Source: Escherichia coli | Lineage (GTDB): Bacteria; Pseudomonadota; Gammaproteobacteria; Enterobacterales; Enterobacteriaceae | Reading direction: 5' to 3' (one strand) | Assembly: GCF_024298765.1 (NCBI RefSeq) | Contig: NZ_CP101211.1 | Length of the DNA stretch: 64,000 nucleotides | In this document: piece by piece, positions 9,046 to 36,067 of the stretch | How the letters are laid out: the number at the start of each line of letters is the position of its first letter | How positions within the stretch are numbered: the first letter of the stretch is position 1 | Notes under the pieces: model-generated | What the model was told of the DNA's origin: nothing | Database searches by the model: none | The model's input: the letters and a program-made list of their open reading frames with translations, nothing else | Made by a program: the position numbers and the translations under genes

Positions 9046-9402
9046 ATGAACATGAAAAAGCCCAAAGCTGCATTACAGAATGCCATGAAAGAAGATGTGC
9101 CAGCTGTGACACAGATTCAGATGCGATCTACGGTTTCCAGAAAGGTTCGCTATGTAAAACAGGCAAATCGAGAGGGTCTGAAATTATCTGAGTGGATGTC
9201 GCGGCATCTCGACGCTGTCTGTGATACCGCAGATGAGATTCATAAAGGCAAACGCTCAACTCCGGTTGCGCCTGGGAAGATTCCCCCAGAGGTATACCAG
9301 GTGATATACGATCAGTGCGGCGGGTTCGTGGAGTGTGATGCTAATGCCCAGGTTATCTGGGAAGCCTGCCGTAATGCCATTCTTAACGGAGACAAAGGGT
9401 AA
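9046..9402 (+). CDS. putative ribbon-helix-helix DNA-binding protein (118 aa)
   Basis: N-terminal strand-helix pattern QMRSTVSRKVRYVKQANREGLKLSEWM; paralog of 35810..36067. Confidence 0.4.
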   Translation: MNMKKPKAALQNAMKEDVPAVTQIQMRSTVSRKVRYVKQANREGLKLSEWMSRHLDAVCDTADEIHKGKRSTPVAPGKIPPEVYQVIYDQCGGFVECDANAQVIWEACRNAILNGDKG

Positions 9403-9432
9403 ACGGCAGGTATCGCCTGTCATTTTACCCTT

Positions 9433-9651
9433 GTGAGGACAATACTGATGAACCATGAGAGCCGAACTGTATACCTGAACACGGCCATTGAGGCCCTGCT
9501 GAAAGCTGAGGCGGCTCTGAACGATCTGGCATTAGCCTATGAGCTTAAACCTGATGAAAAGGCAAGCGCATGCCATCCCAGAACCGGCACACTTTCCACT
9601 GCGTCCCAGGTAAAAAAACTCCGCCGTGTCCTTGAGAAGCAGAAGGTATGA
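9433..9651 (+). CDS. hypothetical protein (72 aa)
   Basis: ORF following 9046..9402. Confidence 0.35.
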   Translation: MRTILMNHESRTVYLNTAIEALLKAEAALNDLALAYELKPDEKASACHPRTGTLSTASQVKKLRRVLEKQKV

Positions 9652-9660
9652 AGGGCTGCA

Positions 9661-9963
9661 TCAGCCAGGCCCGGATATAAATACATGCTCTGCCAGGTGA
9701 GTACCACTGCCCGGTAGCCGAATGATAAGTTTTGATTTCACGGTTGCAATTTCTCCCTCTGGCATCACTGCTCCACGATGCACCCCGATCAGCTTAGCGT
9801 CTGAAAATGAAGATGCACCGGACCTGCATGAAGCGGAACGGTGCCCAGCTGAGTGTTTGTGGGCACAATGAACCGCAATTTCATGATGGGAATGAAAGAT
9901 GGCTGGTGGCCCGCTGATATGAACGCTTACCCTGCATAACGTTACTAACCACAATCTTTTCAC
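9661..9963 (-). CDS. hypothetical protein (100 aa)
   Basis: ORF downstream of hok terminator; weak. Confidence 0.25.
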   Translation of the reverse strand: MKRLWLVTLCRVSVHISGPPAIFHSHHEIAVHCAHKHSAGHRSASCRSGASSFSDAKLIGVHRGAVMPEGEIATVKSKLIIRLPGSGTHLAEHVFISGPG

Positions 9964-9964
9964 T

Positions 9965-10003
9965 AAAAGAAAAAAGGGTTCCTCCGCTTTAGAGGAACCC
10001 TTT
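9965..10003 (-). terminator. intrinsic terminator
   Basis: minus-strand stem AAGGGTTCCTC/GAGGAACCCTT followed by TTTTCTTTT. Confidence 0.55.
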
Positions 10004-10039
10004 CAAAAGGTGCCGATGGCATACTAATCCACACCCTGA

Positions 10040-10063
10040 AAAGAGGGGGGTTGCCCCCCTCTT
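10040..10063 (-). terminator. hairpin at hok 3' end (terminator or fold-back element)
   Basis: stem AGAGGGGGG-ttg-CCCCCCTCT just 3' of the hok stop codon. Confidence 0.45.
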
Positions 10064-10069
10064 TGTCAG

Positions 10070-10228
10070 CTACTTACCGGATTCGTAGGCCAGGATAGCA
10101 AATACCTCCCTTGTTCCGTCTTTCATCCGCAACTCGCAAAGCGAGTTTCGTGTGAGCCAGGTGAATATCAACAGCGTTAAACAAACTATTAATATGCACA
10201 AAACAATGGGTTGGTTCGGCATTTTCAT
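10070..10228 (-). CDS. hok: Hok-family membrane toxin (52 aa)
   Basis: [52 protein letters not shown] closely matches plasmid Hok ([26 protein letters not shown]). Confidence 0.85.
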
Positions 10229-10285
10229 GGCCTTCTTCTCCTTGCATTTAAGCAGGCAAGAGGCTACGCTGTGTGTGACTAGCAT
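10070..10285 (-). CDS. mok: Mok, in-frame N-terminally extended reading frame overlapping hok
   Basis: 71-aa frame with ...KEKKAMK junction as in MokC/Mok. Confidence 0.65.
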
Positions 10286-10326
10286 ACAGGGGCCTCGGGT
10301 TGTACTGACCCCAGAAAGTTGGACAG

Positions 10327-11178
10327 TTAAACACGAGGCATATAGGTCTGATTCCGATATTCAATTGGAGTCAGACCTTTTAATTTCAGGCTAATTCTTC
10401 TGCTGTTGTAGTATTCAATATATTCCGTAACAGCATCCTTCAGCTCGCTTATATTACTGAACTCATCAAGATAAAAACACTCCGACTTTAAGGTTCCAAA
10501 GAAACACTCCACCACAGCATTATCCAGACAATTGCCTTTTCTGGACATGCTTTGTTTAATACCATGTTCTTTAAGGATATTTTGATATCTTCTCATACGA
10601 TACTGCCATCCCTGGTCAGAGTGCAGAACAGGATGCTCGTGAGGATTAAGCTTTTTGAATGCCTGATCGAGCATATTCTCGACCATGTTCATCACTGGTC
10701 TTTCCGAAAGGCTGTAAGAAATAACTTCGTTGTTGAAGAGATCTATTACTGGAGACAAATACAGCTTGCGCCCATTGACTGCAAATTCAGTAACATCGGT
10801 AACCCACTTCTCGTTTGGCCGCGTAGCCTTGAAATCTCTTTGGAGAACATTGGGGGCGGTTTGCCCTACCTCTCCTCTGTAAGAGCGGTATCGCTTGACC
10901 TTAATCGCTGCCTTCAGTGAGAGGATTCCCATCAGGCGCTGAACAGCTTTATGGTTAATCTGTTTCCCTTCTCGATGAAGAGACAGCGTTACCCTACGGT
11001 ATCCGTATCGGCCTCTATTCTCATGATAAATCTCACCAATACGCTTTTTAACGTCCGCATACTTGTCAGGCTTGCTGAGAGCCTTTAGATGGTAATAAAA
11101 CGTACTGCGCGGTATCTCCGCAGCCCTGAGAAGCTCATCAAGAGGATAAAACTGCCTTAGCTCGTTGAGTACTTTCAC
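10327..11178 (-). CDS. insK: IS150 transposase OrfB (InsK)
   Basis: 283-aa IS3-family DDE transposase matching IS150 InsK. Confidence 0.95.
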
Positions 11179-11696
11179 TTTTTCGTGGGATGAGCTAAGG
11201 CTTTCAGCTTTTTTAGATACACAAGCCGCGTTTCAAGAAATCGAACTTGCCTTTCAAGATCCTCAATGCGTCGGTCTTTTGACAGCTCCAATGCTGATGC
11301 CGCTTTTTCTGGATCAACTGATATTGCAATGTTTCTTTTGGTGCCAATCTTGAGCGCGCGTAAACCAGCTTCTCCGCGCTCTTCATAAACCTTCAGCCAC
11401 CTGGCTACAGAACCACTACCAGCAAGCATAAAGTGAGCAGCAGCCTGATTAAGGGACATGTGCTGCTCGATCACCGCTTTCACGACCTTAATACGCAACT
11501 CAGGATCAGCACTAACACCTTTAGGTTTGGGAATTAAACCTTTTTCTCCATGTTTTTCATAGAGGGCAACCCATGTCCTGACCTGGGTTCGGGGGACACC
11601 AAAACGTGCCGAGATGATCCTGTAACCATCATCAGTAGTGAAGTAGTGATTCACGACTTCAAGGCGCTTTTCAAAAGGGTATTTTGGCTTTGACAT
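11175..11696 (-). CDS. insJ: IS150 OrfA (InsJ)
   Basis: 173 aa beginning MSKPKYPFEKRLEVVNHYF, matching IS150 InsJ. Confidence 0.95.
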   Translation of the reverse strand: MSKPKYPFEKRLEVVNHYFTTDDGYRIISARFGVPRTQVRTWVALYEKHGEKGLIPKPKGVSADPELRIKVVKAVIEQHMSLNQAAAHFMLAGSGSVARWLKVYEERGEAGLRALKIGTKRNIAISVDPEKAASALELSKDRRIEDLERQVRFLETRLVYLKKLKALAHPTKK

Positions 11697-11836
11697 ATCA
11701 GGGGCTATTCCATTTCATCGTCCAACAAAATGGGTGCAGTACAGGTTAATTGAAAAATTACTCGGGGCTTTCTGCTTTTACCACAGTCAAACAGTGTTAC
11801 CGCTGGCTGGGGCAAAAGCCTCCAGCACCAGCGTCA

Positions 11837-11863
11837 TTATATCACTCTGCCCTGATCAGCCAA
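11837..11863 (-). promoter_or_regulatory. putative sigma70 promoter (original hok promoter, now separated from hok by IS150)
   Basis: minus strand TTGGCT-N16-TATAAT. Confidence 0.35.
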
Positions 11864-12028
11864 ACACCCTGCCTGCATAAATCATTGATTTATAATTTAT
11901 TTGACATGAGTCACTTCCGGTTGTCGGAGACAGTCTTTTTACACTAAAGAAAAGGGTAACGGGCAGCTGCTTGGTCGGAACATACAGTGCAGTTCCTGCC
12001 CGTTTAATTTCCGGATGCAATGGTAGGA

Positions 12029-12634
12029 TCAGGAGGCACTGGTTCCGTTGATTAGGGAAAGCTTATGTGCCTGAATACGGCTGTATTCGAGATGGGATGG
12101 AATATTACAGATGCGCTCCAGTCGATCATGCAGCCTCGTGTAGGTCAGTCGATGAATACCGGACATTTCATCAAGTAGCCAGCGCTTGATGTAAGGGTTA
12201 CAGGAAAGCCGGGCAAGATCGTCGTCATCCACTTCGTCAAAGAACCAGTACTGCTCCATCGGGACTACCTGAAATATCCACGGCCGGGGATAGTCCCCTG
12301 TGACAACCAAAAACCATGCGAGAAAGCATAGACACAGCTCAACGATCATCAGCATCGAAAATTGCGAATAACTTAGACCAGGCACATAGGGTGAACTATC
12401 CGCAACATACCCCCTGAACAATTCCGCCACAAGGTAGCCCAATAGCGACAAGGCCAGCATCAGGGTCAGGATTAATCCCCCATTAAACGCTACCGAAGCC
12501 TTTTGAACCCGATCAGGTGCTGTCCGGCTGCGATAGTTGGTCACTACTCTTTCTACAAGTGCCCTTATGGCAGCCTGTTCTTTACTGACATCAGCTCCGG
12601 AAAAACCGGACGGGCTTTTATTTAATTCAGTCAT
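12029..12634 (-). CDS. membrane protein (201 aa)
   Basis: two long hydrophobic segments; acidic DDDD motif. Confidence 0.5.
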   Translation of the reverse strand: MTELNKSPSGFSGADVSKEQAAIRALVERVVTNYRSRTAPDRVQKASVAFNGGLILTLMLALSLLGYLVAELFRGYVADSSPYVPGLSYSQFSMLMIVELCLCFLAWFLVVTGDYPRPWIFQVVPMEQYWFFDEVDDDDLARLSCNPYIKRWLLDEMSGIHRLTYTRLHDRLERICNIPSHLEYSRIQAHKLSLINGTSAS

Positions 12635-12849
12635 ACCCCACTCCTGTTATGTGCTCTACTGAACAAACACGTAGATCATACAGAGCTCACGGACGCACTC
12701 CTGCCAGATAAAGGAGGGAATTTGGCTGTAAGACGGTTAGCCAACAGTTCAGGTTATGCGTGGGATCCGGCCAGTCAGAAAGGATTCCGTTATTAACAGG
12801 CAAGGTTAAAGGCAGATGGACGTTGAAATTGTGGATGCTAAAAGGGGTA

Positions 12850-13131
12850 TTACTCTTTTTCCTGCATAGCGGCTTTTTCAGCCCGGGTGGCCAGGCGAGC
12901 ATTTCCGAAAGGTTCACGGACAAGCAGGGGCTTCTCCTTCTTCCAGCCCCTGATAGCCGTTTCTCCAAAACGACGTGGTGCATTGCCGTTCCAGCGAGCA
13001 ATCACATGATTATCATGAATTTCTATAATGACAACGGGGTGGACAATGACCGTTGTAATGGTGGTATTTCCCATTTTGGTACGGGTTACAGACCAAACCT
13101 GCATCCCGGATTCCAGCTGGCTGATTTTCAT
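12850..13131 (-). CDS. hypothetical protein (93 aa)
   Basis: ORF with AAGGA RBS; competing overlapping frames are less protein-like. Confidence 0.35.
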   Translation of the reverse strand: MKISQLESGMQVWSVTRTKMGNTTITTVIVHPVVIIEIHDNHVIARWNGNAPRRFGETAIRGWKKEKPLLVREPFGNARLATRAEKAAMQEKE

Positions 13132-13505
13132 ATTATATCCTTAAGCCAACACGAACTGCGCCACAAAAATTAATGTGGCGCAATTTACCATAAACAATAA
13201 ACATCAGATACCCGTGAAGAGATTTCCCTTTATTTTAAAATTCTTCTGGAGAAAAAATGATATTTCCAGAAGAAGTCAGCGAAATTCAGAAACGGCCATC
13301 ACAATGGTGCTGCGCTGACGCTGGCGTTCTGCCTTGCGCTGCCTGCGGCGATAGATCTATTTTGCGCTGACGTAAGGGCAGTCCTCACGGGTATACCAGC
13401 AGCAGCCGCAAGGTTCGGGCCGGGGTTTTCCGGCAAGTCCAAATGGTTTCATCAAGTCACCTTTTTAATATTTTTAATGGCAAGATACTTCCCTAACACA
13501 TTGTT

Positions 13506-13817
13506 TTATCGCATATAACGCTGTTGCATAAACAGATACAGATAACCCTCAGGAGAAAACATGCAAAGGTTATCAGTGATAACCGCATCCAGATACCGAG
13601 TGTCAGTCTGTAAACGTTTTATCACCAGAAAATGTGCTGCCGCAGCCTTAATGCCAGAACTACCGTTTACAACATTATGTATACCCGCTTCGAATAACGA
13701 ACGAGCATGAATTACCTTTTCCCGGGCCGCTTCGATCTCCGCATTAATAACGCATTGCCGCGCCTGGATGACTGCCTCTCCGGTTAAATCGCGGAAATTC
13801 ATTAGAGATGTGATCAT
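13506..13817 (-). CDS. hypothetical protein (103 aa)
   Basis: ORF in minus-strand operon. Confidence 0.4.
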   Translation of the reverse strand: MITSLMNFRDLTGEAVIQARQCVINAEIEAAREKVIHARSLFEAGIHNVVNGSSGIKAAAAHFLVIKRLQTDTRYLDAVITDNLCMFSPEGYLYLFMQQRYMR

Positions 13818-14039
13818 GATTAACTCTCCAGATTATGTGGAATCATTATAACAACTGGCATCCCGCCACAAATAACCTGAGAAAAATTCTTTGAAATATT
13901 CCTATATATAAGGAATTACAGTCGGAAAAGAAACGATGAAATAGCGCCGACCGCTTAAAATCGATAAATTAAAATGGACGGCACTGGAATGAAAAACTGA
14001 AAGTAGTAAGACCGTAATTATCCTTCACGGATGTAAGCT

Positions 14040-14240
14040 TTATAAGAGGAGTACTGGCAAAGCTTTGCCAAGTACTTCGGCGGTTGTGTCTACGATTTTA
14101 CGGATGTCATCGATCTGCGAAGGCTTATTCAACACCACCGTAAAAAGCTCTCCTTCGTTATCAGCCTGCTCGCAGTTTCCGTATCGGCTCCCGTCGTACA
14201 GCTGCACAATACGTGACATAGAAGACTTTGTTTGTTTCAT
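14040..14240 (-). CDS. small protein, distant member of the PMTLNDLS paralog family
   Basis: weak similarity to 14280..14504. Confidence 0.35.
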   Translation of the reverse strand: MKQTKSSMSRIVQLYDGSRYGNCEQADNEGELFTVVLNKPSQIDDIRKIVDTTAEVLGKALPVLLL

Positions 14241-14279
14241 GGCTTTGCACCTGCTTTTAGGCAGTTTGGTTACTGGTTA

Positions 14280-14504
14280 TCAGAAGCTGGTTTCATGCGC
14301 TTCCGGCTGGGACACGAACTGGTATTTGACGCCGCCAGGCACACCTACTGCTTCGGCAATAGAGTCGCAAAGCCGCGATAAATCATTTAGTGTCATCGGA
14401 TATTCAATATCTACAGAATATAAAGCACCTGCATTTTCAGCATCTTCGATGTTTTTATACTGGGCACTAAATATAGCAATGGTCTGAATTTCGTGGTTAT
14501 GCAT
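14280..14504 (-). CDS. small conserved protein (PMTLNDLS...AVGxPGGxKY family)
   Basis: clear paralog of 20246..20485. Confidence 0.5.
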   Translation of the reverse strand: MHNHEIQTIAIFSAQYKNIEDAENAGALYSVDIEYPMTLNDLSRLCDSIAEAVGVPGGVKYQFVSQPEAHETSF

Positions 14505-14558
14505 GAACCGGTCCTTATTAAATTATAAAAGCCACCCGAGAGTGGCCTGAGTTGAAAC

Positions 14559-14762
14559 TTAAATCTGTGAAGTATTTTTGAGAGATTTTTTGCGATCCAG
14601 ATGCCGGGCAACAATGGTTCCGATAACAAGTAGCATGATGACCGCACTGAAGAAGGTGCTGTCAGGGACGCCCTGGAAAAAATCACTGAAACTGTAAACA
14701 ATAAAAATCAATGCGCAAAAATAGAAAACGATACGAACATAAGGGGTAAAAAACATTTTCAT
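14559..14762 (-). CDS. small membrane protein (67 aa, two TM segments)
   Basis: hydrophobic; first gene after palindrome at 14904. Confidence 0.4.
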   Translation of the reverse strand: MKMFFTPYVRIVFYFCALIFIVYSFSDFFQGVPDSTFFSAVIMLLVIGTIVARHLDRKKSLKNTSQI

Positions 14763-14903
14763 CGGTTGCCTTCCATTCAGGGAGAATTCTCAGTAATTAC
14801 ATCACACCTGAAGAGAAACTATTTTCGTATAAATGAGCATTTTCGACATATCAGAGGGGGGGTTTACTCATAAATGAGGTAGTAAGGGTCACACTTGAGG
14901 TGA

Positions 14904-14914
14904 AAGTTACTTTC
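14904..14914. promoter_or_regulatory. AAAGTTACTTT palindrome copy
   Basis: ...GTGAAAGTTACTTTCCTGG...; ~145 bp upstream of 14559..14762. Confidence 0.5.
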
Positions 14915-14941
14915 CTGGCTGCGAACGAACTATCTCAAATG

Positions 14942-15235
14942 TTAGAGGTGTGCGTTCGCCTTGAGAGCCTCATGCCCTGAGGAGCTCAACTTGAGCCGAT
15001 AGTATAAACCTGGCTCCAGATGGCTTGCTGGCTGGCATAACTCCACGAGGCCGAGCCGGAACAGGACCGGAGAGCTCCTGCACGTCACATCATCAGGATT
15101 CCCCATAAACGTACGCCGTTCTCTGGCCCGTCTGAAATTGCCAGAGATATCATAGACCGTGCCGGATGCCATCCGTCGTAACACGTAAATCTGTGCCATT
15201 GTAAGCTTCTGGGCGGAACTGCTTAAACCTGACAT
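14942..15235 (-). CDS. hypothetical protein (97 aa)
   Basis: ORF. Confidence 0.4.
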   Translation of the reverse strand: MSGLSSSAQKLTMAQIYVLRRMASGTVYDISGNFRRARERRTFMGNPDDVTCRSSPVLFRLGLVELCQPASHLEPGLYYRLKLSSSGHEALKANAHL

Positions 15236-15314
15236 ACCTTCCCCTCCTTATATAAAACAATCCGCCAGCAGCTCGACTGGCGGACAATGTTTGACTGGCA
15301 ACAGCAAGGACATA

Positions 15315-15806
15315 CTATTTAGTGACAAGTTTGATCTTGGTTTCACTCATTCGAAGTCGAAACTCCTGAAAACCCTGCTCTACCGCTAACTCCAGCCACT
15401 CAACGGGAATGGTATAGCTACAATCAGACCCACCCAAAGCGGCATCACAAGCGTAATCCCAGTCCTCATCCAGTTTTGGATTCATCCCCTGGGCGTAAGC
15501 CACAGTATCGCGGGATGCGGGAGAGCCCTCAAGCTCAGCATTAGTGATCAGGTATACACCATGACTGTGCGCGAGAAGCACTTTTGGCACCAGATGTGTG
15601 CTGGCAATTTTTGAGGATGAGGGAAAGAAAACCCTACCAGCTTTACGCGCCTCTTCTTCAGTCTGTCCCTCAGCGTTAAGGAGGGCTCCCCCCGGATAGC
15701 ATGCCGGGTCATAGATCTGATCTGCGGTGACCGAAAACGTTTTTGCGGTGCGAATTTCTTCGATCAGTTTATTAATATCCGCCATTTCAAATACGAGAGT
15801 GGTCAC
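15315..15806 (-). CDS. hypothetical protein (163 aa)
   Basis: ORF. Confidence 0.5.
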   Translation of the reverse strand: MTTLVFEMADINKLIEEIRTAKTFSVTADQIYDPACYPGGALLNAEGQTEEEARKAGRVFFPSSSKIASTHLVPKVLLAHSHGVYLITNAELEGSPASRDTVAYAQGMNPKLDEDWDYACDAALGGSDCSYTIPVEWLELAVEQGFQEFRLRMSETKIKLVTK

Positions 15807-16003
15807 AGGCTTACTCTCCCTCTTCAGTGGACAACATCAGATACTTTGTTGCCAGCAGAAGCTCTCCCACATCCTTGAGGGACAATTCAGCTTTGCCTTC
15901 TACGGCAAGCTGCAAGCGCTGTCGAATTGCATGAACAGAATCTGAAGATAAAGATGCCATTTTGCGCAAAACGGCATTAGCCTTTTCTGGTAATGACTCC
16001 AAC

Positions 16004-16507
16004 TTATTGATAGTGTTTTATGTTCAGATAATGCCCGATGACTTTGTCATGCAGCTCCACCGATTTTGAGAACGACAGCGACTTCCGTCCCAGCCTTGCC
16101 AGATGTTGTCTCAGATTCAGATTATGTCGCTCAATGCGCTGAGTGTAACGCTTGCTGATAACGTGCAGCTTTCCCTTCAGGCGTGATTCATACAGCGGCC
16201 AGCCATCCGTCATCCATACCACGACCTCAAAGGCCGACAGCAGGCTCAGAAGACGCTCCAGTGTGGCCAGAGTGCGTTCACCGAAAACGTGCGCCACAAC
16301 TGTCCTCCGTATCCTGTCATACGCGTAAAACAGCCAGCGCTGACGTGATTTAGCACCGACGTAGCCCCACTGTTCGTCCATTTCAGCGCAGACAATCACA
16401 TCACTGCCCGGTTGTATGCGCGAGGTTACCGACTGCGGCCTGAGTTTTTTAAATGGCGGAAAATCGTGTTGAGGCCAACGCCCATAATGCGGGCTGTTGC
16501 CCGGCAT
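16004..16507 (-). CDS. insB: IS1 InsB
   Basis: matches IS1 InsB. Confidence 0.9.
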
Positions 16508-16701
16508 CCAACGCCATTCATGGCCATATCAATGATTTTCTGGTGCGTACCGGGTTGAGAAGCGGTGTAAGTGAACTGCAGTTGCCATGTTTTACGGCAG
16601 TGAGAGCAGAGATAGCGCTGATGTCCGGCGGTGCTTTTGCCGTTACGCACCACCCCGTCAGTAGCTGAACAGGAGGGACAGCTGATAGAAACAGAAGCCA
16701 C
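16426..16701 (-). CDS. insA: IS1 InsA
   Basis: [30 protein letters not shown]... matches IS1 InsA. Confidence 0.9.
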
Positions 16702-16948
16702 TGGAGCACCTCAAAAACACCATCATACACTAAATCAGTAAGTTGGCAGCATCACCGCCTTTTCTACAGCAGGATACAGAATTTCTGAGTTGGTATTATC
16801 TTCGTCATTATCAAAGATAATTTCAGAATCCATATTGATGTTATCTTCAAGCCAGCTTGAAAGCACTTCAAGTAATGACATCACCTTTTCAATTTGCATA
16901 TCGCCTCCTCTGTTAATGTGAAACAAATATAACAAAGTGGCTTACCCG

Positions 16949-16963
16949 GCTAATAACCTGAGC
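16949..16963 (-). promoter_or_regulatory. GGTTATTAGCC promoter-proximal element with TATATT 16 bp downstream
   Basis: also forms one arm of a long hairpin (TAACCTGAGCAGAAAGTT / AACTTTTCTGCTCAGGTTA). Confidence 0.45.
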
Positions 16964-27721: not shown

Positions 27722-28342
27722 TTAATCAGCCTCAAGATTCTGGAACTCAATGAGCTTTTGCTCACACTCCTCCCTGCCCCACGATCCCTGCCAGTCACAG
27801 ATGTCCCGGTACTTACTTTCCAGCTTATCCATCTGTGCGAGATTAGCTGTTGCGAAGTCTGTCCATATGTCATGCCAGCAAGCGTTGTACGTAACGCCAG
27901 CTGGTGGACAATACTCCATTGCATCAGCATTAATAATTTCAACGCGAAGATCGGTTGCAAACGAGGCTGCAACGAGGTTAATAACATCCTGTTCTTTTTC
28001 GATTACCGTGACATGGGTTACATCGTCTTTCTGAAGAATGGCGTGGAGCACCATACCAAGACCAAGACCATTAATGAGCACCCGCCCGGTGGCTCGCTCT
28101 ATAAAATCCTGGCAGGTTCGGATCTCCATCGGGGTATTGGACATCACCACATCCCAGCCGTTGGACAAGCGGCGATATCTACCGGGCGGGATAAACTCAT
28201 CTGTATTACCAGTACACTCGGCACGAAGGGCGAGGGTCAGCGCCTTATCTGTGGTAATTTCGAAAGTGTCCAGTTTCCAAGTTCCGGACTTGCCGTCTTT
28301 AACGGGTAAATCAGAAAAGCAGCTCTTCATCGAGGCAACCAA
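27722..28342 (-). CDS. hypothetical protein, possible Rossmann-fold methyltransferase-like (206 aa)
   Basis: VLINGLGLGMV resembles SAM-binding motif I; otherwise unassigned. Confidence 0.4.
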   Translation of the reverse strand: MVASMKSCFSDLPVKDGKSGTWKLDTFEITTDKALTLALRAECTGNTDEFIPPGRYRRLSNGWDVVMSNTPMEIRTCQDFIERATGRVLINGLGLGMVLHAILQKDDVTHVTVIEKEQDVINLVAASFATDLRVEIINADAMEYCPPAGVTYNACWHDIWTDFATANLAQMDKLESKYRDICDWQGSWGREECEQKLIEFQNLEAD

Positions 28343-28485
28343 AATTCCAGTAGTTTTGTTACGCTGAACCTACCACAAACCCGCTCTTAATGAAGGCATC
28401 AGGAGCGATAGCGATCTTTGAGGCATCGTTTAAAACAGCGGCATCCTGTAACAGACACCCGATATTTTTTTTAATGCCGCAGGTG

Positions 28486-28743
28486 TTAAAGGTAGCGTTG
28501 CAAAGTTGCAACATCTTCAGGGGCAACCTCCACGCAGCTCCTGACACTGTAGTGATTTTCGCCGTTGTAGTCATAAACCCCACCGTCTTCAAAACTCAGC
28601 TGTTCAACCTCGCCAGCACACTCGGAAATCAGTGCCGTCTGGCAAGCATTTTTCTCACAATCGCTGACGAGTATACGAACATAGCTTTTCTCATGGTCGC
28701 CGTTACGGTTCTGGATCTTTACGATAAAGTGTTTTTCAGACAT
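28486..28743 (-). CDS. hypothetical protein (85 aa)
   Basis: ORF with GGAGG RBS. Confidence 0.4.
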   Translation of the reverse strand: MSEKHFIVKIQNRNGDHEKSYVRILVSDCEKNACQTALISECAGEVEQLSFEDGGVYDYNGENHYSVRSCVEVAPEDVATLQRYL

Positions 28744-28807
28744 TTGTGCCTCCAGCTCAGGTTGAGGTTAATTTAGCGTTGCCCCGGTTCACCGGGGCAA
28801 GAATAAA

Positions 28808-29236
28808 TCAACCCTTAATGAAATTGTGCCCCCAGGTGTTAGGCTTAAATGCCTGCTCTTTGATATATGTTTTCATTACCTTGCAGGTTTTTTTCAGGGC
28901 TTTGGTATTGGCATCGGTTACTGGGATAAAATGGCGAGAATGACGGTTTTCCCGGTACTGCTTATCAGCGTTTGGGTCAATTGCTTCGCTTTGCAGGAGC
29001 CCTTCGTGCCTGCCAATTACTATTACGTAGTTCATTTCACCTGAAACACGATCCGTGAGTAATTGAAGGGAAATATCAGCTGCTCGCGTGGCCTGGCTTG
29101 CAGATATTTTTGCATGCAAGAAAGCCCCCTTTCTGAATTTGGCCGGAGTTAGCCCTGTAATATCCTCAACACTAAAATTAAGTGAGGAAAGAATTGAAAA
29201 TAAGTCGCAGCTAATGACTTCAGTATTATTAGGCAT
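28808..29236 (-). CDS. hypothetical protein (142 aa)
   Basis: ORF; inverted repeat operator-like element upstream. Confidence 0.45.
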   Translation of the reverse strand: MPNNTEVISCDLFSILSSLNFSVEDITGLTPAKFRKGAFLHAKISASQATRAADISLQLLTDRVSGEMNYVIVIGRHEGLLQSEAIDPNADKQYRENRHSRHFIPVTDANTKALKKTCKVMKTYIKEQAFKPNTWGHNFIKG

Positions 29237-29266
29237 TTTACCCGTCCCCGTCCATATTCATGATAC

Positions 29267-29295
29267 GGTAATGATACCAGGTCGATATCATTACC
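29267..29295. promoter_or_regulatory. inverted repeat GGTAATGATA-N9-TATCATTACC
   Basis: perfect 10-bp arms overlapping the putative promoter of 28808..29236. Confidence 0.4.
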
Positions 29296-29330
29296 TAATA
29301 ACTTGGTGAAAGAAAATCTGTAATTTTTAG

Positions 29331-29708
29331 TTAACTAAAATTAATAGTCTCAATACTGCTCAAGAATTCTTTTTTTACGTCCGGTGTAAAAGGTATACGT
29401 TCAATGTATTTATAAAGTGTCGCAAATGTTTTGGGTTCAATGTTTCGGGAGATAATGTCATCAATCGGATCTTCGAACATATTGATAAAGATATCGACAT
29501 GCTGCTCTCCGCTTTCTGATGCCTTTGAAAGAAGACTGACCACTTCAATGTAGCGATTATCCTGCTCTGCAATGAACAACCAGTGCCCTTCGTTAAAGGC
29601 GGGTGCAGCGCTGTAGCGTTTAACAACAATTTCTGAAAGATTATATCCTGCCTGATTCAGCAGATTATTAAAGTTGAGTTGAGTTGAAATCACGTCTAAC
29701 GTTTTCAT
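29331..29708 (-). CDS. hypothetical protein (125 aa)
   Basis: ORF with AAAGGAGG RBS. Confidence 0.45.
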   Translation of the reverse strand: MKTLDVISTQLNFNNLLNQAGYNLSEIVVKRYSAAPAFNEGHWLFIAEQDNRYIEVVSLLSKASESGEQHVDIFINMFEDPIDDIISRNIEPKTFATLYKYIERIPFTPDVKKEFLSSIETINFS

Positions 29709-29755
29709 AAAACCTCCTTTTCATCTGTACTTATTATACTGTTACCCAACCCCCA

Positions 29756-29770
29756 GCTAATAACCTCCCA
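29756..29770 (-). promoter_or_regulatory. GGTTATTAGCT promoter-proximal element with TATAAT downstream
   Basis: minus strand GGGAGGTTATTAGCT ... TATAAT ... AAAGGAGG ATG. Confidence 0.45.
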
Positions 29771-29877
29771 GCAAATTTTCAGAAAAAAAACACCGCCTTT
29801 TATTTAAGATTGAACACATCCTTTTTAAATACCAACAATGATTATGAAACCACAATGTAAGTGAAGCGCCATTATGG

Positions 29878-29890
29878 AAAAGTAACTTTT
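29878..29890. promoter_or_regulatory. AAAAGTAACTTTT palindrome copy
   Basis: exact palindrome ~170 bp upstream of 29331..29708. Confidence 0.5.
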
Positions 29891-30115
29891 GTGCAGCTCA
29901 TAAATTTTATTTATTAGTTACGTTCCTTTGTCTTGTGGTCGAAGTTCATCAGGCGAGGCCTAAGAAGAATATGTGTGGTTTCAGCCAATGCGGTGATCGG
30001 GCATTATAATTTGGTCGGGCTATTATACGTGGGTAAAGGTAGTGGTAGGGAGAGGATCAGGTTAAATTGCATTTTCCCGGTTGCCTTCCCTGGCCTACCG
30101 GTTTCAGGTCAGACG

Positions 30116-31297
30116 CTAAGACCAGCGGTAATACTTAAAGTAGTCCTCATTTACAGCCAAAAACTCCCTTAAACCGTTCATTAATCCCTTTTCAAACGCT
30201 GTAACGATAAACCGGTATCCGTCCAGTGTTTCAATGTAGTAGATCCCGCCCGGTGTTATTCCAACATGCAACACCTCGGCTGTCATCATAAACTGGCCTT
30301 CCGGAAAATCATGCGACAGGTATATAAAACCCGTCGTGGCCGGTGCGGGTGTGGCATTCACTAAGACACCGTTAAACTGCTGCCCGTGCCTCGCCGGTAC
30401 AAGCTCACTTCCCCTGGTTGACTTATCGAGCAGCCCCTTAACATCTTTTTGCTCTTTAGATGAGGTATAGCCCCGCACATCACTCCCATCACCTGGGCGA
30501 GAGCCGGTGCCGACATGTGCAAGACGACGGTAAGCGCTGCGCATATTGATGTGGCAGGATGCCCCGGCTCTACCCTGAAGCCTTACGCCAAAATCTTCGC
30601 AAAGTAATAAAATCTGACGTAGCTGGTGTTCATACACGGACGCAGAAAGTGAAAGGTTGAAACTGGAAAAGGTCAGTTCTAAAACCTTTTCCCGTTTGTC
30701 ATTGAAATGTGCTTCCAGCCTGATGATTGGCTTTTCCGACATTGCAAAAGCTTTGTCCGTTGCTCTGTACCGGCATTCATCTCCGAAACATTCTTCAACA
30801 ACGCTGGCTATAACCGTGTCGTGATCGCCATCTTCCGGAGCTGGCACAAAGATTTCAAATTGTGCCGGTGTCTCCGGCTCCAGCAGAACGGGATATAAAC
30901 GCGGAGAATTAAGCAATGCGCATTCAGAATTAATGAGCTTAACCCAGGCGCTTTTGTCGTCCGGATCCTTAAGCTGCTGTCCAAGGTTATCGCAAAAGTC
31001 TACTATCTGACGGGTATGCTCATCCGTGACTGCACAGATCAGGTTAAGACCATGCGTGGCCATACTCAATTCCCGGGTTCGGGACTGGGAATTGATCGAC
31101 CAGGGGTTAAGTGAAAGCGAAATAGGGCTTATGGAAGGGACGACCGTCTCATTCTGCAAATCTGTAAGCTGGCAGTTCGCAGTAGGCTTCGGGGAAAGGG
31201 TACTAAATATGTAACTTGCCTGTTGTTTAGTACTGGCCTGGATATAAAACATCGCGTCCATGCTTGTATCCCGGGATGAAATTGAAAATAGCTTCAT
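30116..31297 (-). CDS. hypothetical protein (393 aa) immediately downstream of HigB-like gene
   Basis: starts 9 bp after the higB-like stop; no HTH recognised. Confidence 0.5.
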   Translation of the reverse strand: MKLFSISSRDTSMDAMFYIQASTKQQASYIFSTLSPKPTANCQLTDLQNETVVPSISPISLSLNPWSINSQSRTRELSMATHGLNLICAVTDEHTRQIVDFCDNLGQQLKDPDDKSAWVKLINSECALLNSPRLYPVLLEPETPAQFEIFVPAPEDGDHDTVIASVVEECFGDECRYRATDKAFAMSEKPIIRLEAHFNDKREKVLELTFSSFNLSLSASVYEHQLRQILLLCEDFGVRLQGRAGASCHINMRSAYRRLAHVGTGSRPGDGSDVRGYTSSKEQKDVKGLLDKSTRGSELVPARHGQQFNGVLVNATPAPATTGFIYLSHDFPEGQFMMTAEVLHVGITPGGIYYIETLDGYRFIVTAFEKGLMNGLREFLAVNEDYFKYYRWS

Positions 31298-31305
31298 TTT
31301 TAACC

Positions 31306-31602
31306 TTAATGGATGAGCGATTTATAGTCATGTGCTGACAAATGGACATTATGTGCGCCATCATTCCATTCAAAGAATAATCGATACTTAGAGTTTACTC
31401 GAATGGAGGAATAACGGTTTGACGTCATTCTTAAGCGTTCATAACGCAAGCTGTTGGATAATAACTCCCGCTCACTCTGGACATTATCCAGCGTTTCGAG
31501 TCGACACAGAATCGCGTTAATAATTTCAGAAGGAATACCTGCCGTTGTTTTTCCATTACGGAAGAACTTTTCAAGCCGTCTGTCTTTAAATGAATGGATC
31601 AT
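31306..31602 (-). CDS. HigB-family (plasmid killer) toxin-like protein (98 aa)
   Basis: FKDRRLEKFF...IPSEI...SIRVNSKYRLFFEW.DG aligns with Rts1 HigB (FKDKWLEQFY...SIRVNKQYRLIFKW.DG). Confidence 0.7.
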   Translation of the reverse strand: MIHSFKDRRLEKFFRNGKTTAGIPSEIINAILCRLETLDNVQSERELLSNSLRYERLRMTSNRYSSIRVNSKYRLFFEWNDGAHNVHLSAHDYKSLIH

Positions 31603-31651
31603 AGTTCCTCCGTAATAATTGACCTTAAAATTAAATTAAAAGGGCTTTGAA

Positions 31652-32122
31652 TTAATGAATCCCTAAAATGCGGGCGGCGACTGCCAGCTGCTTATCACTT
31701 AACTGACGCTGGTGGGTTAAAGAAGACTTAAGGCTTTCCAGAAAATTATTACTGCTGGATTGCTGGGTGATTGCATCAACCATTTTTTGATGAGATCTGC
31801 ACCATGCATTGAACGCAGAGTTGTGGGCGTTTTCAGTCCTCAAACGCTCGTTTTGCAAGGATGCTGACACTTTGCGGGCAGCTTGAGCATTAATGCGGTA
31901 CAGCGCATTCAGCGTGTAAGCAGTGCGGGTCGTTTCGAGGCTGTAACCCGTGGCTTTACAAGCCATACAGCGACTTCTATAAAAATGCTTACGCTCTCCC
32001 CGACCATTGCATTTATCGCAAAGAATACGAAAAGTATATTCCGCAGTACCTTTTACAGAATCAACACAGCGGATTTTTGCGCTGGAGATTTCAATTCCAC
32101 TGCGATCATAATATTTGGTCAT
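31652..32122 (-). CDS. zinc-ribbon protein (156 aa)
   Basis: CDKC...CMAC cysteine pairs. Confidence 0.45.
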   Translation of the reverse strand: MTKYYDRSGIEISSAKIRCVDSVKGTAEYTFRILCDKCNGRGERKHFYRSRCMACKATGYSLETTRTAYTLNALYRINAQAARKVSASLQNERLRTENAHNSAFNAWCRSHQKMVDAITQQSSSNNFLESLKSSLTHQRQLSDKQLAVAARILGIH

Positions 32123-32174
32123 AATGTGATTCCTCCGGTTAGTTCTGGAGTAATCATGACAGAATGAATCTACT

Positions 32175-32189
32175 GGCTAATAACCTGAG
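32175..32189 (-). promoter_or_regulatory. GGTTATTAGCC promoter-proximal element
   Basis: minus strand CTCAGGTTATTAGCC ~60 bp upstream of 31652..32122 start. Confidence 0.45.
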
Positions 32190-32556
32190 AGTAAATATTT
32201 TAAAAAAACATTGAGAGAGGGTCTGCAAATTTATACACGAAGGATTCAAATATAATTTTGTTTAAAAAATTAAGAGCATTCTGAAGTAAAAGTGCATCAA
32301 AAAGCATTCATGGATAAATCATGTACTGGTGCCAGCCATTTAAACGCGGGCATTGTTCCGGAGTGATTAAACGGTTTAGCATCATAGATTAAAACCAAAA
32401 GGAAGGCGTCCTTCCCGTCTCGGGAATATTACTTTCCCGTTTGCAATTTAAGAGCCACTTAATGAGAAAGTAATAATTAAGTCATGCTCAACTCTACATA
32501 TTACATTGAGGATGGCGTAACAGGGTACGGCATACTACCGCACCCTTCTGAAGAGC

Positions 32557-34947
32557 TTATGTTTGAGGGAATTCTATAGCAAATGTGGCCGTGCCAGATT
32601 GACCACTTACAGCGGGAGTAACGGGATACGTGCGCTCTTCACCATTACCAAGATCCAGTGACAGCGATTTAGTTTCACCAGGCTGGACCGTAACTCCGGC
32701 AACCGTAACGCCGAACTGGGCATTTTTCTGAACAGTCAGGGTTCCGTTTAACTGTCCGGTAATGATAGAACCGTCCTGACGCCGCAACACACTGGTTCGG
32801 ATGATGGCCAGCGGCGTGTTGTCCGTTGCTTTCAGTGCTACGGCTGTGGCCAGCGTCTTGAGATTATCCAGCATAATCAGATTCGCAGGCTGGTAGGTAA
32901 AATTAAGCGTTTTAGTGGTCCGGTTACCTGATTCGTCAATAGCCAGTGCCTCCAGATGATACATCTGTCCCGATTCGTCAGTGTTGGGGAAGATTCTGGG
33001 GTATTCCGGAATAAAGACATCCTTGGATAACGGCGTGAATGCCAGGGTGACCTTTTCAGAGTTAGGTCCACCAGCGAGCTGAAGCGATGTCAGGGAAGCA
33101 TCCCCAGAGGCATCAGTAACGCTTATGCGAAGGTTCTCAAGCCCTTTAACCAGTTTTCCTTCTGCGTCTGCGCCATTAAAACTGAACGCGATAACCGGAA
33201 GCGTTGAGTCAATTTTCAGCGGTGCATTAAGCGTTTTGGTTCCGGTGTTTCCAACAAGATCCGTGGCAGAGACGCTAACCACCGTATAATCCCCGTCCGG
33301 TAGACCAGCGTATGAGAAGGTGGCGTTTTTGGTTTTATAATCGCTTTCACTGACGGTCACAGGCTTCAGCGTGAAAGGTTCCCCCCGGGCATTTTTAAGG
33401 GTGGCTTCGAAAACTTTGGTATCCCAGTAGCTGATGTTCCAGGCGTTGACGCGATCATTATCGGTGGCCGTCATAGTGATTGTCTTGGAGGCCTTGTTTA
33501 CCTGAGCGACATTAACCACCGGTGGGTTGTTATCCCAGATAACCGTAAAATTACCAGCAAGCGCATCGAATATGCTGTCACCATCTTTTCCCGAGTAAAG
33601 GTGCAGATACTCAAATCCTTTGTCACTGGTGTAGTTGAAGTTAACCGTCATCTCGCATGAACTTTGTCCGATAGGTATAGTGCAGAACCAGGCTGCATTT
33701 TTTACCGTTCTGAACTTTTGCACGTATGGTCGGGGTTCAGCGGTTACCTTTATGCGGCTAATGGTGGCGGTTTTAACGCTGATTGAGGCCTGAGTTAACC
33801 ACTCACTGGTATCACTCCGGTACATCTCTTTAGCCACTATCTTCGGGGCTATTTCCATCGCCGGGGCTGGAGTGAAGTTGAGGGAGTTATGATGAATTCG
33901 TCTTACTCCTCCTGCCAGAGTCTGGAATTCATGATAAGTATCCCCCACATTGGGATATATGTATTTGAAAGTATAAATATTATAAGTGCTATCGGACGTC
34001 TGGAAATTCGAGTCCGCCCAGCCATATTTGGAACCGTTAACAGCAGTAAAGTCACTTTTTTTCCTTAATACCCGTACGGAAATAGGGTTCTGGAAGACGG
34101 TCATGCCAGACTGATAAGTGACCCATGATCCGGTAGTGGCGTCCTGCACCTGGATGATATCGTCAGGCTTAACCCGATCAATTACGCTTCGGCGGCTTAG
34201 TTCGATCCTGTTTCCCGCTTTGTCATAAAGGTAGATCCCCACTTTATATTCAGAGCGGTTTTCCGGTGCCAGGGCATTGCTGCTTGCGTCGGCGACTTGA
34301 ACGGTTACGCTACCTTCCACTGTATTAATTTCCGCTGGCTTTTTACGCTCCACTCCAGCGGCATCGGTTATGAAATATTCAGCATTAGCAAGCCCGGAAC
34401 CTTTATCACTCAGTCCATTAAAGACCAGTGCCTGGACGCTGGCGTACTGCATACCGGCTGGTACTGAAGTGAAGATCGCTTCGCTGCCAAAGTTCCACCC
34501 GTTTCTCGTATAACTTATGGTACCCGTTGCCGGAGGCGTTCGGTCAATTGCAAGCGGGTAATCCTGCCGGGAGACCTCCTTCCCTTGCAAGTCGGTAATC
34601 ACCTCTCTGAGGGTGAAGCTATCTTCTCCCATCGCTGGTACGGTCAGAGTCTTGCCGTAATAATCAAAGCCTGTCGAAGATGTGGTACGGTCATCTACGG
34701 TAACCAGGCTGCTTTTCGTGCTCCAGATGAGGCTCCCGTCACTTTTCAGCAGACTGAGCGTAATATAACGGTCCAGACCGGAAATAACGGCAACGTCAAA
34801 GCTCGTTACCGGATTAATCCATACGGATGCAGGCGATACGGTCTTTTTAACGTTCAGGGTATCTTTAAAGCTGAATTCTGCGATTTCAGCGGAAGCTCCT
34901 GCGCTGAAACCTGCAAATGCAATAAGCAGGGCTAGTTTGATTTTCAT
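32557..34947 (-). CDS. secreted Ig-like repeat protein, paralog 1 (~796 aa)
   Basis: Sec signal peptide MKIKLALLIAFAGFSAGASA; repeated D-x-T-P-P domain starts; paralog of 40500..42920 and 48582..51038; start chosen at the internal Met with AGGAGA RBS. Confidence 0.7.
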   Translation of the reverse strand: MKIKLALLIAFAGFSAGASAEIAEFSFKDTLNVKKTVSPASVWINPVTSFDVAVISGLDRYITLSLLKSDGSLIWSTKSSLVTVDDRTTSSTGFDYYGKTLTVPAMGEDSFTLREVITDLQGKEVSRQDYPLAIDRTPPATGTISYTRNGWNFGSEAIFTSVPAGMQYASVQALVFNGLSDKGSGLANAEYFITDAAGVERKKPAEINTVEGSVTVQVADASSNALAPENRSEYKVGIYLYDKAGNRIELSRRSVIDRVKPDDIIQVQDATTGSWVTYQSGMTVFQNPISVRVLRKKSDFTAVNGSKYGWADSNFQTSDSTYNIYTFKYIYPNVGDTYHEFQTLAGGVRRIHHNSLNFTPAPAMEIAPKIVAKEMYRSDTSEWLTQASISVKTATISRIKVTAEPRPYVQKFRTVKNAAWFCTIPIGQSSCEMTVNFNYTSDKGFEYLHLYSGKDGDSIFDALAGNFTVIWDNNPPVVNVAQVNKASKTITMTATDNDRVNAWNISYWDTKVFEATLKNARGEPFTLKPVTVSESDYKTKNATFSYAGLPDGDYTVVSVSATDLVGNTGTKTLNAPLKIDSTLPVIAFSFNGADAEGKLVKGLENLRISVTDASGDASLTSLQLAGGPNSEKVTLAFTPLSKDVFIPEYPRIFPNTDESGQMYHLEALAIDESGNRTTKTLNFTYQPANLIMLDNLKTLATAVALKATDNTPLAIIRTSVLRRQDGSIITGQLNGTLTVQKNAQFGVTVAGVTVQPGETKSLSLDLGNGEERTYPVTPAVSGQSGTATFAIEFPQT

Positions 34948-35081
34948 GGGTTGTCTCCTGATCAGGTTCCCCATGATACTTTTTCAGTGTTCGAGATCTT
35001 TTCGGGAAAATAGCTAATTTTAATGTTTTTCTTTTCTGCCCGGCGGGACTTGTTTTGTTTACGTAAATGCAAAAATACAAG

Positions 35082-35095
35082 AAAAGTTACTTTTT
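35082..35095. promoter_or_regulatory. AAAAGTTACTTTTT palindrome copy followed by TGATAG
   Basis: ~110 bp upstream of paralog 1; extended match to the copy at 51259. Confidence 0.5.
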
Positions 35096-35350
35096 GATAG
35101 GGTTAAAATTAGGTTTTCCCAATTTCCAGAAGCAAGCGAAAGCAGAACTAGCTTAATAGCCATTAAAAACGCCATGCCTATTGATAAATAAAGCTCATTA
35201 CATTTAATGATTAGAGCATTTAAAACTGAATTAGCGAAAGAATTTCGGTTAGCTTTTTATTGCATGAGTGAAACAGTATTAATAATCCGGAGCCATCAGA
35301 ACGTACTCTAAAGACTCCGGTATACAGATATCTTGCCAGTAAAAATGGCC

Positions 35351-35602
35351 TTACTCCTCATCATCCCCCAGCGCTTTTTTGATGGCGCGGCGGCGGGCTG
35401 CATCACCTACACGATATCCGACTGAATATACGTCATTCAACCGGCGCAGAATAAGATTTATTTCCTCATCCTGAATGTAGGCAGGTAAACACAGAACTAC
35501 GTCGCCATCTTCATCATAGACTCGAACAACTTCCTTCTGCCCATCTCGCTCGCGAATAATCTGGACATGCTGAACCCTGGTGTAATCTGGGATTACGCTC
35601 AT
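35351..35602 (-). CDS. hypothetical protein (83 aa)
   Basis: ORF. Confidence 0.4.
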   Translation of the reverse strand: MSVIPDYTRVQHVQIIRERDGQKEVVRVYDEDGDVVLCLPAYIQDEEINLILRRLNDVYSVGYRVGDAARRRAIKKALGDDEE

Positions 35603-35809
35603 TTTAAATATCTCTCTTTAATTGTTGTTACCAGTTAGCTATAAGCCGGTTTATTCAGGTACTCAGTGTTCTGCACAGCAATCGCCTGTTCGTGGATCAT
35701 TAACACTGCTGGGCGGGCTTTAAGGCGCTTGCTGGTGAGAAAACGCTTCACTTCTTTAAGTTCGCTGCCAGCCGACAGCATATTGAAGACATGCTGTTTG
35801 AGACTGTTG

Positions 35810-36067
35810 TTATTTTTGGCCACTTGTTTCTCCATCATCTTTGTACATGGTTGTGTCGGGCTGGCCTGCCAGATCACACACGTTATCCATATGCTTTTGG
35901 ACCCAGTCTGTTAGACCCAGGCCTTCGGCCTTTGCCTGATTGACGTAACGCAGTTTCCGATCAGGGGTAACCCGCATCTGTAGTTGTGCCGTCGCTGGAA
36001 CCGCCTCTTTCAGGGCGTTAAGGCCCCTCTGATCACGGGCCTGATTTGATGGTTTACCGTTTGGCAT
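35810..36067 (-). CDS. putative ribbon-helix-helix DNA-binding protein (85 aa)
   Basis: paralog of 9046..9402 (QLQMRVTPDRKLRYVNQAKAEGLGLTDWV). Confidence 0.4.
   Translation of the reverse strand: MPNGKPSNQARDQRGLNALKEAVPATAQLQMRVTPDRKLRYVNQAKAEGLGLTDWVQKHMDNVCDLAGQPDTTMYKDDGETSGQK

Follow-up and report, generated by a model that had tools for sequence, protein, structure and literature searches.

Two small paralogous proteins encoded on an IncHI2 conjugative plasmid of Escherichia coli are supported as ribbon-helix-helix (RHH) proteins, and we estimate a probability of about 0.55 that they are dimeric autorepressors of their own operons, acting through an inverted repeat over the -35 hexamer. 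Plasmids of the IncHI2 type are important vehicles of resistance genes, mcr-1 among them. The window, that is, the whole stretch of 64,000 nucleotides that was analyzed (contig NZ_CP101211.1), is IncHI2 backbone running from the MOBH relaxase region to repHI2, which lies at ~46.4-47.5 kb (46386..47474, minus strand). In annotated plasmid records the MobH relaxase, TraD and an S49 peptidase are immediately upstream of the window start, and the majority of genes in the interval between the relaxase region and repHI2 are annotated as "hypothetical protein". The two proteins, here called p1 and p2, are encoded at 9046..9402 (plus strand; 118 aa, ATG start) and 35810..36067 (minus strand; 85 aa, ATG start), in each case by the third gene of an operon on that strand. 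From the sequences of the proteins and their promoters, we infer that p1 and p2 would dimerize as RHH DNA-binding proteins, that each dimer would bind an inverted repeat straddling the -35 with the core TTGT-ATTG-ACAA, and that binding would repress the promoter of the small operon encoding that RHH protein. Each operon would be a portable cassette composed of the repeat-bearing promoter, a two-hairpin 5' leader, a few small genes and the RHH gene, and the autoregulator would limit a burst of early accessory or presumed anti-defence gene expression, as anti-CRISPR-associated (Aca) proteins do. Two conserved "hypothetical" proteins thereby gain a fold and a testable target.

The paralogy of p1 and p2 and the shared core pattern, as a sequence-only reading of this DNA had written it, were confirmed by BLASTP, which aligned the two proteins without gaps over 51 residues with 30 identities (59%, E 1e-21). 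A tblastn search with both proteins found no third copy in the window, and the family HMM found exactly two members in the complete 241-kb IncHI2 plasmid pAPEC-O1-R. The p1 protein is WP_001056296.1 in RefSeq records, and the 3-kb stretch around its gene is 100% identical in many IncHI2A/MOBH plasmids of 220-290 kb from E. coli, Salmonella, Klebsiella, and Enterobacter. Proteins 99% identical to p2 exist in NCBI, whereas p2 is missing from the PLSDB gene table for at least one plasmid that is identical in other respects, where an overlapping 67-aa open reading frame (ORF) is listed instead. This 67-aa gene (35635..35838, minus strand) overlaps the p2 stop by 29 nt. Its homologues come after the RHH gene in three other loci (L012, L016, L017), and therefore the 67-aa gene and p2 are probably both real and form a recurrent pair. 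Both p1 and p2 are genuine genes.

In ~470 IncHI2 plasmids only a p1-type match was found, p2 having been lost. In pQT6365 (L065 5440-6020, corresponding to window ~35050-37230), a deletion of ~1.9 kb takes out most of the p2 operon; what remains is the module promoter, the leader and 40-odd codons at the start of the first gene, fused to sequence that lies just upstream of a gene for an 805-aa Ig-like protein. Because this deletion occurs in natural IncHI2 plasmids, p2 is dispensable. If the proposed model is right, p1 would control the orphan p2-operon promoter in plasmids without p2.

Profile searches and structure prediction support an RHH fold for the core of p1 and p2. A profile of seven core sequences matched the N-terminal domain of AcrIF25 in the PDB (E 6.7e-5), and a profile of 87 sequences matched the crystallized RHH N-terminal domain of AcrIF25 (8jdh) at E 3.6e-10 over AcrIF25 residues 3-47. 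An exhaustive profile search placed p1 and p2 in a family of 230 clusters at 50% identity (E<=1e-3), mostly of 55-90 aa. The Pfam family NikA-like (PF21983) was matched by 39 of the 87 relatives (best E 5.9e-8), and fewer of them matched TacA1, HicB, RHH_10, DUF6290, MobC_2, RelB, or RHH_1. Direct scans of p1 and p2 against Pfam, NCBIfam, and PHROGs gave weak matches (LmbU C-terminus, E 0.002-0.009; phrog_5117, E 0.004); p2 matched NikA-like at E 0.019 and 15.5 bits, under the gathering threshold of 27 bits, and p1 did not match that family at all. The AlphaFold2 model of p2 (mean pLDDT 82.7, core above 90, with blocks at 96-98) contains an extended segment at residues 20-34 and helices at 35-47 and 52-67; the segment is unpaired in the monomer, where DSSP does not assign it as a strand. 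When this model was searched against the PDB with Foldseek, nearly all matches were RHH proteins (the AcrIF25 N-terminal domain, NikA, ORF56, Arc, CopG, PutA, FitA, TacA, and AtaR), with weak E-values, as expected for a 45-residue domain, and target-normalized TM scores of up to 0.91. The predicted strand, TQIQMRST in p1 and AQLQMRVT in p2, alternates polar and hydrophobic residues, and its Arg is conserved in at least 90% of the 87 relatives. Structure prediction thus returned a strand-helix-helix unit of ~45 residues with RHH matches, and the RHH assignment of the sequence-only reading holds on the AcrIF25 profile match, the NikA-like matches of relatives, the model topology and the Foldseek results.

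The RHH domain spans residues ~18-62 of p1 and ~22-67 of p2; it is followed by a conserved 55-aa C-terminal extension in p1 and by a short tail in p2. The 55 C-terminal residues of p1 are ~60% identical between IncHI2 and IncHI1B, and family scans of this region yielded no significant match. A model of full-length p1 built on a 6-sequence alignment was not usable (pLDDT 61, with the strand drawn as a helix). Some relatives carry the domain in tandem, with four copies in P0022 (228 aa) and three in P0041 (259 aa). Such chains would be expected of a domain that works as dimers or tetramers, and they are possible covalently linked dimers of dimers.

The regions upstream of the two operons are dissimilar except for two islands, a 13-mer, TTGTATTGACAAT, and a 22-nt GC box. 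The 13-mer includes a perfect TTGACA and occupies the equivalent position in both promoters. In the p1 operon, the inverted repeat CTTCAATTGT-ATTG-ACAATAGAAG at 7246..7269 (plus strand) spans the -35 (TTGACA, 7257-7262; the -10 is CATAGT, 7280-7285), and a sigma-70-like promoter (10/12) was called over it. In the p2 operon, an imperfect inverted repeat at 37198..37224 (minus strand) surrounds TTGTATTGACAAT (37204-37216) and likewise spans the -35 (37211-37206). Both repeats are candidate RHH operators, and the combination of repeat and leader occurs in the window at the two RHH operons and at no other site. The outer arms of the repeat vary among loci with the symmetry kept. In enterobacterial modules, the predicted DNA-reading residues of the strand covary with the repeat core: a Q-Q-R strand pairs with TTGT-A-TTGACAA (IncHI2 twice, IncHI1B, more than ten P1-like loci, and L021), His-containing strands pair with TTGT-G-TTGAC (L005, L007, L013, L186), and an M-R-R strand pairs with CTTGTGRCCACAAG (L016, L017). 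Since p1 and p2 share the same Q-x-Q-x-R triad and the same 13-bp core, each protein should act on the promoter of the other as well. The -35 repeat is favored over the GC box as the operator because the box is near-invariant across differing strands and is kept in plasmid R27 without an RHH gene.

Several observations weigh against this assignment. The p2 promoter was missed by a simple promoter scan and its -10 matches at 3/6 positions, and pAPEC-O1-R carries TTGTATTGGCAA at the p1 promoter. The covariation consists of three strand classes that are phylogenetically non-independent, and conservation of the repeat core may partly reflect promoter strength, because the central ATTG is asymmetric and the core contains a consensus -35. 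In the modules of GC-rich phages, the strand is nearly constant (ALIHLRVP), yet the repeats in the promoter spacer are all different; there the repeat is probably read by the adjacent small helix-turn-helix (HTH) protein, and the RHH domain may have another role in those modules. The operator was assigned from sequence. In addition, Pfam and PHROGs scans of the cargo genes in the window operons gave nothing with a known function and no anti-defence family.

Downstream of the repeat, both operons have a 5' leader with two predicted hairpins. In the p1 operon it lies at 7294..7333 (plus strand), with hairpin 1 at 7294-7312 and the GC box, which forms hairpin 2 (CCCGG-CGGTA-CCGGG), at 7317-7331, followed by a Shine-Dalgarno sequence (GGAG, 7339-7342) and the ATG at 7349. 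In the p2 operon it lies at 37136..37175 (minus strand), with hairpin 1 and then the GC box as hairpin 2 (CCCGG-CGGCA-CCGGG) at 37152-37138. The 22-nt box CACCGNCCCGGCGGNACCGGGC has 2 matches in the window against 0 expected. Hairpin 1, located between the putative transcription start (CATGG) and the box, differs in sequence between the operons with its pairing kept; in 32 of 36 distinct leaders it folds more stably than after shuffling (mean z -2.6), and some of these hairpins have G-U pairs. Hairpin 2 is paired in 130/130 cells with no wobble pair, and changes occur on both sides at two positions (C-G to U-A in 7 sequences, G-C to A-U in 1) and never on a single side, counts that represent few independent events and come from a retrieval pattern that fixed part of the box. 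A CCG just upstream of hairpin 2 can pair with the CGG in its loop, with a double change from C-G to A-U in the IncHI1B plasmid (L004), so that an H-type pseudoknot topology is possible. Rfam gave no match at E<=10 for the p1 leader region, the sole leader searched.

The leader consensus is a sequence-free hairpin followed by CCGC-CCYRG-CGKNN-CYRGG-CA, and sites fitting it were found beyond the window in L004, L005, L007, L008, L012, L015-L018, and ~30 IMG/VR loci. In leaders from GC-rich phages, UCCUGAUAGGAG comes next after the box and has the potential to base-pair across the Shine-Dalgarno sequence. R27 (L196) has one GC box (record 92036-92052, minus strand) behind a AAAGTTACTTT-type promoter and before the start of a DUF5417-like gene. 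Given the near-invariant box and its retention in R27, we take the leader to be an RNA element belonging to the cassette. The hairpins were also considered as single-strand DNA promoters of a leading region, an idea set aside given that the two operons are on opposite strands and that the module occurs in phages, which presumably enter as double-stranded DNA.

The same module was found well outside IncHI2. In the IncHI1B plasmid, a short RHH gene and a p1-like gene stand in one gene string with DUF5417; other copies are in a phage-like contig that also bears DUF5417 and Tad2-like genes, in a contig that encodes Lar and a giant SNF2 helicase, and in P1-like phage-plasmids. The association of the module with an RHH gene was examined by searching IMG/VR with the box pattern alone, which avoids ascertainment bias. 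This search gave 46 loci, of which ~30 were real modules and 16 were chance matches inside GC-rich coding sequence, as judged by reading the flanks. An RHH-family gene was present 126-1832 nt downstream on the same strand in 26 of the ~30 real modules, and three of the four modules without one have less than 650 nt of sequence left. As a control, a genome-wide box scan gave, among the matches listed, 118 chance matches (GC-rich genomes, Actinobacteria), none with an RHH gene, and 2 real modules, both IncHI2-like and each with an RHH gene; in pAPEC-O1-R (241 kb), true boxes and RHH genes each number exactly 2. The unbiased search thus shows that the module is associated with an RHH gene.

A subset of these modules, from GC-rich phages, is located upstream of terminase genes. 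Some encode full-length AcrIF25 homologues (E 1.6e-41 over the whole protein for a 148-aa protein in L040), and others encode the same RHH domain fused to different C-terminal domains. A small HTH protein comes after the RHH gene in most GC-rich-phage modules. The HTH protein beside the group-2 RHH genes had no match among PDB sequences, which should include Aca1 (7VJM), and the Aca1 RNA motif is therefore not obviously applicable. The same promoter-leader-RHH cassette thus circulates among plasmids, phage-plasmids, and phages.

Judging by sequence and by analogy, p1 and p2 are most likely RHH autoregulators of mobile elements of a known kind, with the N-terminal domain of AcrIF25 as their closest relative and Aca14 as a counterpart in role. 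The RHH N-terminus of AcrIF25 (8jdh/8jdi) belongs to the same sequence family (32-36% identity, rmsd 0.6-0.8 A over 33-38 columns), which ties p1 and p2 to the only solved family member, and AcrIF25 homologues are placed behind the same leader GC box. In contrast, p2 is a single-domain protein, the C-terminal extension of p1 is unrelated to the Cas7-binding domain of AcrIF25, and the strand reads QQR in p1 and p2 and LHR in AcrIF25. The C-terminal Cas7f-binding domain was not seen in p1 or p2, the PDB profile matches being confined to AcrIF25 residues 3-47. According to a 2026 preprint, AcrIF25 does not need its N-terminal RHH domain to inhibit CRISPR; the preprint suggests that the domain is a regulator built into the protein (bioRxiv 10.64898/2026.07.27.740549). 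The name AcrIF25 is used twice, for the Cas7-stripping protein with the RHH N-terminus (8jdh/8jdi) and for an Acinetobacter protein with an HTH N-terminus (8X24); the latter is a naming collision and was not used as a relative.

Aca14, an RHH Aca, was shown experimentally to repress its own and a neighboring operon through promoter inverted repeats (bioRxiv 10.64898/2026.07.27.740549). By role, and not by sequence comparison, p1 and p2 resemble it as small RHH proteins encoded at the end of a mobile-element operon of accessory or anti-defence genes, with a repeat over a core promoter hexamer. However, the Aca14 repeat is AT-rich and over the -10, no RNA motif was found for Aca14, and the window operons carry no known acr gene. 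Of the features by which Aca proteins are recognized, an inverted repeat on the own core promoter is present at the -35 of both operons, whereas an anti-CRISPR or anti-defence gene in the same operon is absent in the window and present in related loci (AcrIF25 homologues, with Tad2-like or Lar genes nearby). An Aca-like role is suggested because the leader and the RHH domain of the cassette are attached to AcrIF25 in GC-rich phages.

Similarities were also found with Arc and Mnt of P22 and with CopG and omega of plasmids, which share the fold (Foldseek returned both Arc and CopG) and the position of the predicted operator over the core promoter. The p1/p2 strand Q-x-Q-x-R-x-x-P is in register with what we take to be the corresponding segment of Arc, Q-F-N-L-R-W-P (Q9-N11-R13). 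Unlike these repressors, with which family-level sequence homology was undetectable, p1 and p2 have a conserved N-terminal arm of their own (NAxKE/GNxNAxK), and their second helix is longer and ends in VCD. NikA/MobC (PF21983) is the best Pfam match of the family, and the NMR structure of NikA is among the fold matches, but p1 and p2 are unmatched or below the gathering threshold, are not beside a relaxase or oriT, and have relatives mostly in phages. Literature searches on IncHI2 with RHH, on the p1 accession and on the motif strings found nothing relevant.

Other explanations of the two proteins were weighed against autorepression through the -35 repeat. The RHH proteins might instead act on the leader GC box, either on DNA at ~+25 to +45 as a roadblock or on the RNA hairpin or pseudoknot, which would then govern translation or the fate of the transcript. 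The box is the element that accompanies the RHH gene in all groups, including the AcrIF25 loci with varying promoter repeats; it contains two CCGG-type subsites spaced by roughly one turn of the helix, the strictly symmetric changes in it would fit a symmetric protein on DNA equally with RNA pairing, and two Aca families are known to bind DNA and a 5' UTR hairpin alike. On the other hand, the box hardly changes while the strand residues differ (QQR, HHR, MRR, LHR), R27 retains it before the DUF5417-like gene without any RHH-family gene, the IncHI1B plasmid has it behind a AAAGTTACTTT-type promoter, and the RHH genes of L013 (directly behind the promoter) and L186 follow a repeat-bearing promoter with no box. 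Free sequence variation and G-U pairs in hairpin 1 give the leader the appearance of a general RNA element serving the first gene, and we consider action on the box unlikely. It is still harder to accept that the RHH domain is a dimerization or adaptor module of anti-defence effectors, with AcrIF25 as the example, the p1 C-terminus as the effector and p2 as a truncated or decoy form, and we regard this as rather improbable. Relatives do fuse the domain to varied C-terminal domains (the AcrIF25 homologues, a 144-aa type and others), the C-terminal 55 residues of p1 are conserved, and Tad2-like and Lar genes are among the neighbors in related loci. But the majority of the family has no second domain, the polar/hydrophobic strand with its invariant Arg is typical of DNA-reading ribbons, and the p1 C-terminal region has neither a confident model nor a significant family match.

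The sequence-only reading had also proposed control of the island by p1 and p2 through a recurrent palindromic motif, here AAAGTWACTTT, which lies near backbone promoters. This palindrome is strongly enriched, with 14 sites of 11 bp in the window (1289, 6338, 6464, 14903, 17887, 20618, 25667, 29879, 35083, 40800, 43024, 51195, 51260, and 61203) against 0.06 expected; it mostly precedes YYCNGGNTGC, just upstream of -35-like sequences, and with its one-base center it would be of a size that one RHH dimer could contact. However, R27 carries 42 sites where 0.09 would be expected, and an HMM search at E<=10 found no gene of the RHH family in it; the palindrome therefore does not require p1 or p2. 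Among the first 64 loci retrieved, all 61 from outside IncHI plasmids lacked it; most of these had been reached by way of the RHH gene or its leader, and they include P1-like loci with the identical Q-Q-R strand. In addition, ~470 IncHI2 plasmids do without p2. The 42 sites of pAPEC-O1-R include the transfer (Tra) and partition regions, which points to an IncHI backbone factor. The palindrome looks like a backbone-wide IncHI promoter element bound by something other than the RHH family, so that control of the island through it by p1 and p2 is highly improbable and a misleading tie is removed. Of that proposal, binding to a promoter-proximal motif survives as far as the -35 repeat of the two own operons is concerned, a repeat that tracks the proteins in sequence where the palindrome does not; a regulatory role remains plausible with a narrower scope, that of the proteins' own cassettes, given the abundance of the palindrome in R27 without the family. 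A role as type II RHH antitoxins or as NikA/MobC-type relaxosome accessory proteins is also very unlikely. The NikA-like match, weak for p2 and stronger for relatives, and the matches of relatives to TacA1, HicB, and RelB antitoxin families speak for it, and in a P1-like plasmid a p2-like gene is just upstream of pdcB-lpa-pacAB, presumably the phd/doc site in P1. However, an antitoxin role is doubtful because no toxin-like neighbor is conserved: the neighboring genes differ by locus and include no toxin-family member, the one partner that recurs (57-67 aa) likewise lacks a toxin-family match, and the HigB-like toxin gene at 31306..31602 is 4 kb off in a different operon from p2. A relaxosome role is doubtful because the relaxase and mobI are upstream of the window start, ~15 kb from p1 and ~42 kb from p2, and most relatives are in phage contigs without a relaxase; neither p1 nor p2 attains the NikA-like gathering score.

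Under autorepression through the -35 repeat, the genes controlled would be the small cargo genes of the two operons. In the p1 operon (plus strand), the first gene (7349..8293) codes for a DUF5417 protein of 314 aa, the second (8390..8992) for a protein of 200 aa without a family match, and the fourth (9448..9651) for a protein of 67 aa matching phrog_19934. In the p2 operon (minus strand), the first gene (36595..37119) has a TTG start and codes for a 174-aa protein of a family beginning MKPMLKK, whose homologues occupy the first position behind this module in L004 (IncHI1B plasmid), L005 (phage-like contig) and the P1-like phage-plasmids. The second gene (36054..36491) codes for a 145-aa protein matching phrog_28248 and is overlapped by the p2 start by 14 nt, and the last small gene of the cassette (35351..35602) codes for 83 aa. 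Should these genes serve in anti-defence or establishment, the RHH proteins would determine when and how strongly they are expressed once the plasmid has been transferred.

A broader proposal, which we offer tentatively and hold to be doubtful as a whole, is that promoter, leader, and RHH gene form one cassette for early accessory or anti-defence genes across IncHI plasmids, P1-like phage-plasmids, and GC-rich phages, where it would drive AcrIF25; the leader would then be an undescribed structured RNA, and the DUF5417 protein, the MKPMLKK family and the p1 C-terminal domain would be new anti-defence or establishment factors. A cassette shared with an anti-CRISPR locus is a more interesting lead than island-wide regulation.

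Several other features of the window were recorded. About twelve tandem 81-bp repeats at 44984-45931 adjoin repHI2, each with an inverted repeat TGACAACGGTAGTGA...TCACTACCGTTGTCA, and 21-bp repeats related to them are found at 47669-48221; both sets are probably iterons or partition sites. The gene at 31306-31602 (minus strand) codes for the HigB/RelE-like toxin (Pfam E 5e-18), with no obvious antitoxin, and is flanked by genes for a 156-aa protein with a weak DnaJ zinc-finger-like match and for a 393-aa "flavin reductase family" protein. Finally, the window is ~2.2 kb longer than p2104-46 (L002) somewhere between the end of p1 (9402) and position 30000, and the ORFs at 10327..11178 and 11175..11696 (minus strand) are candidates for the extra sequence.

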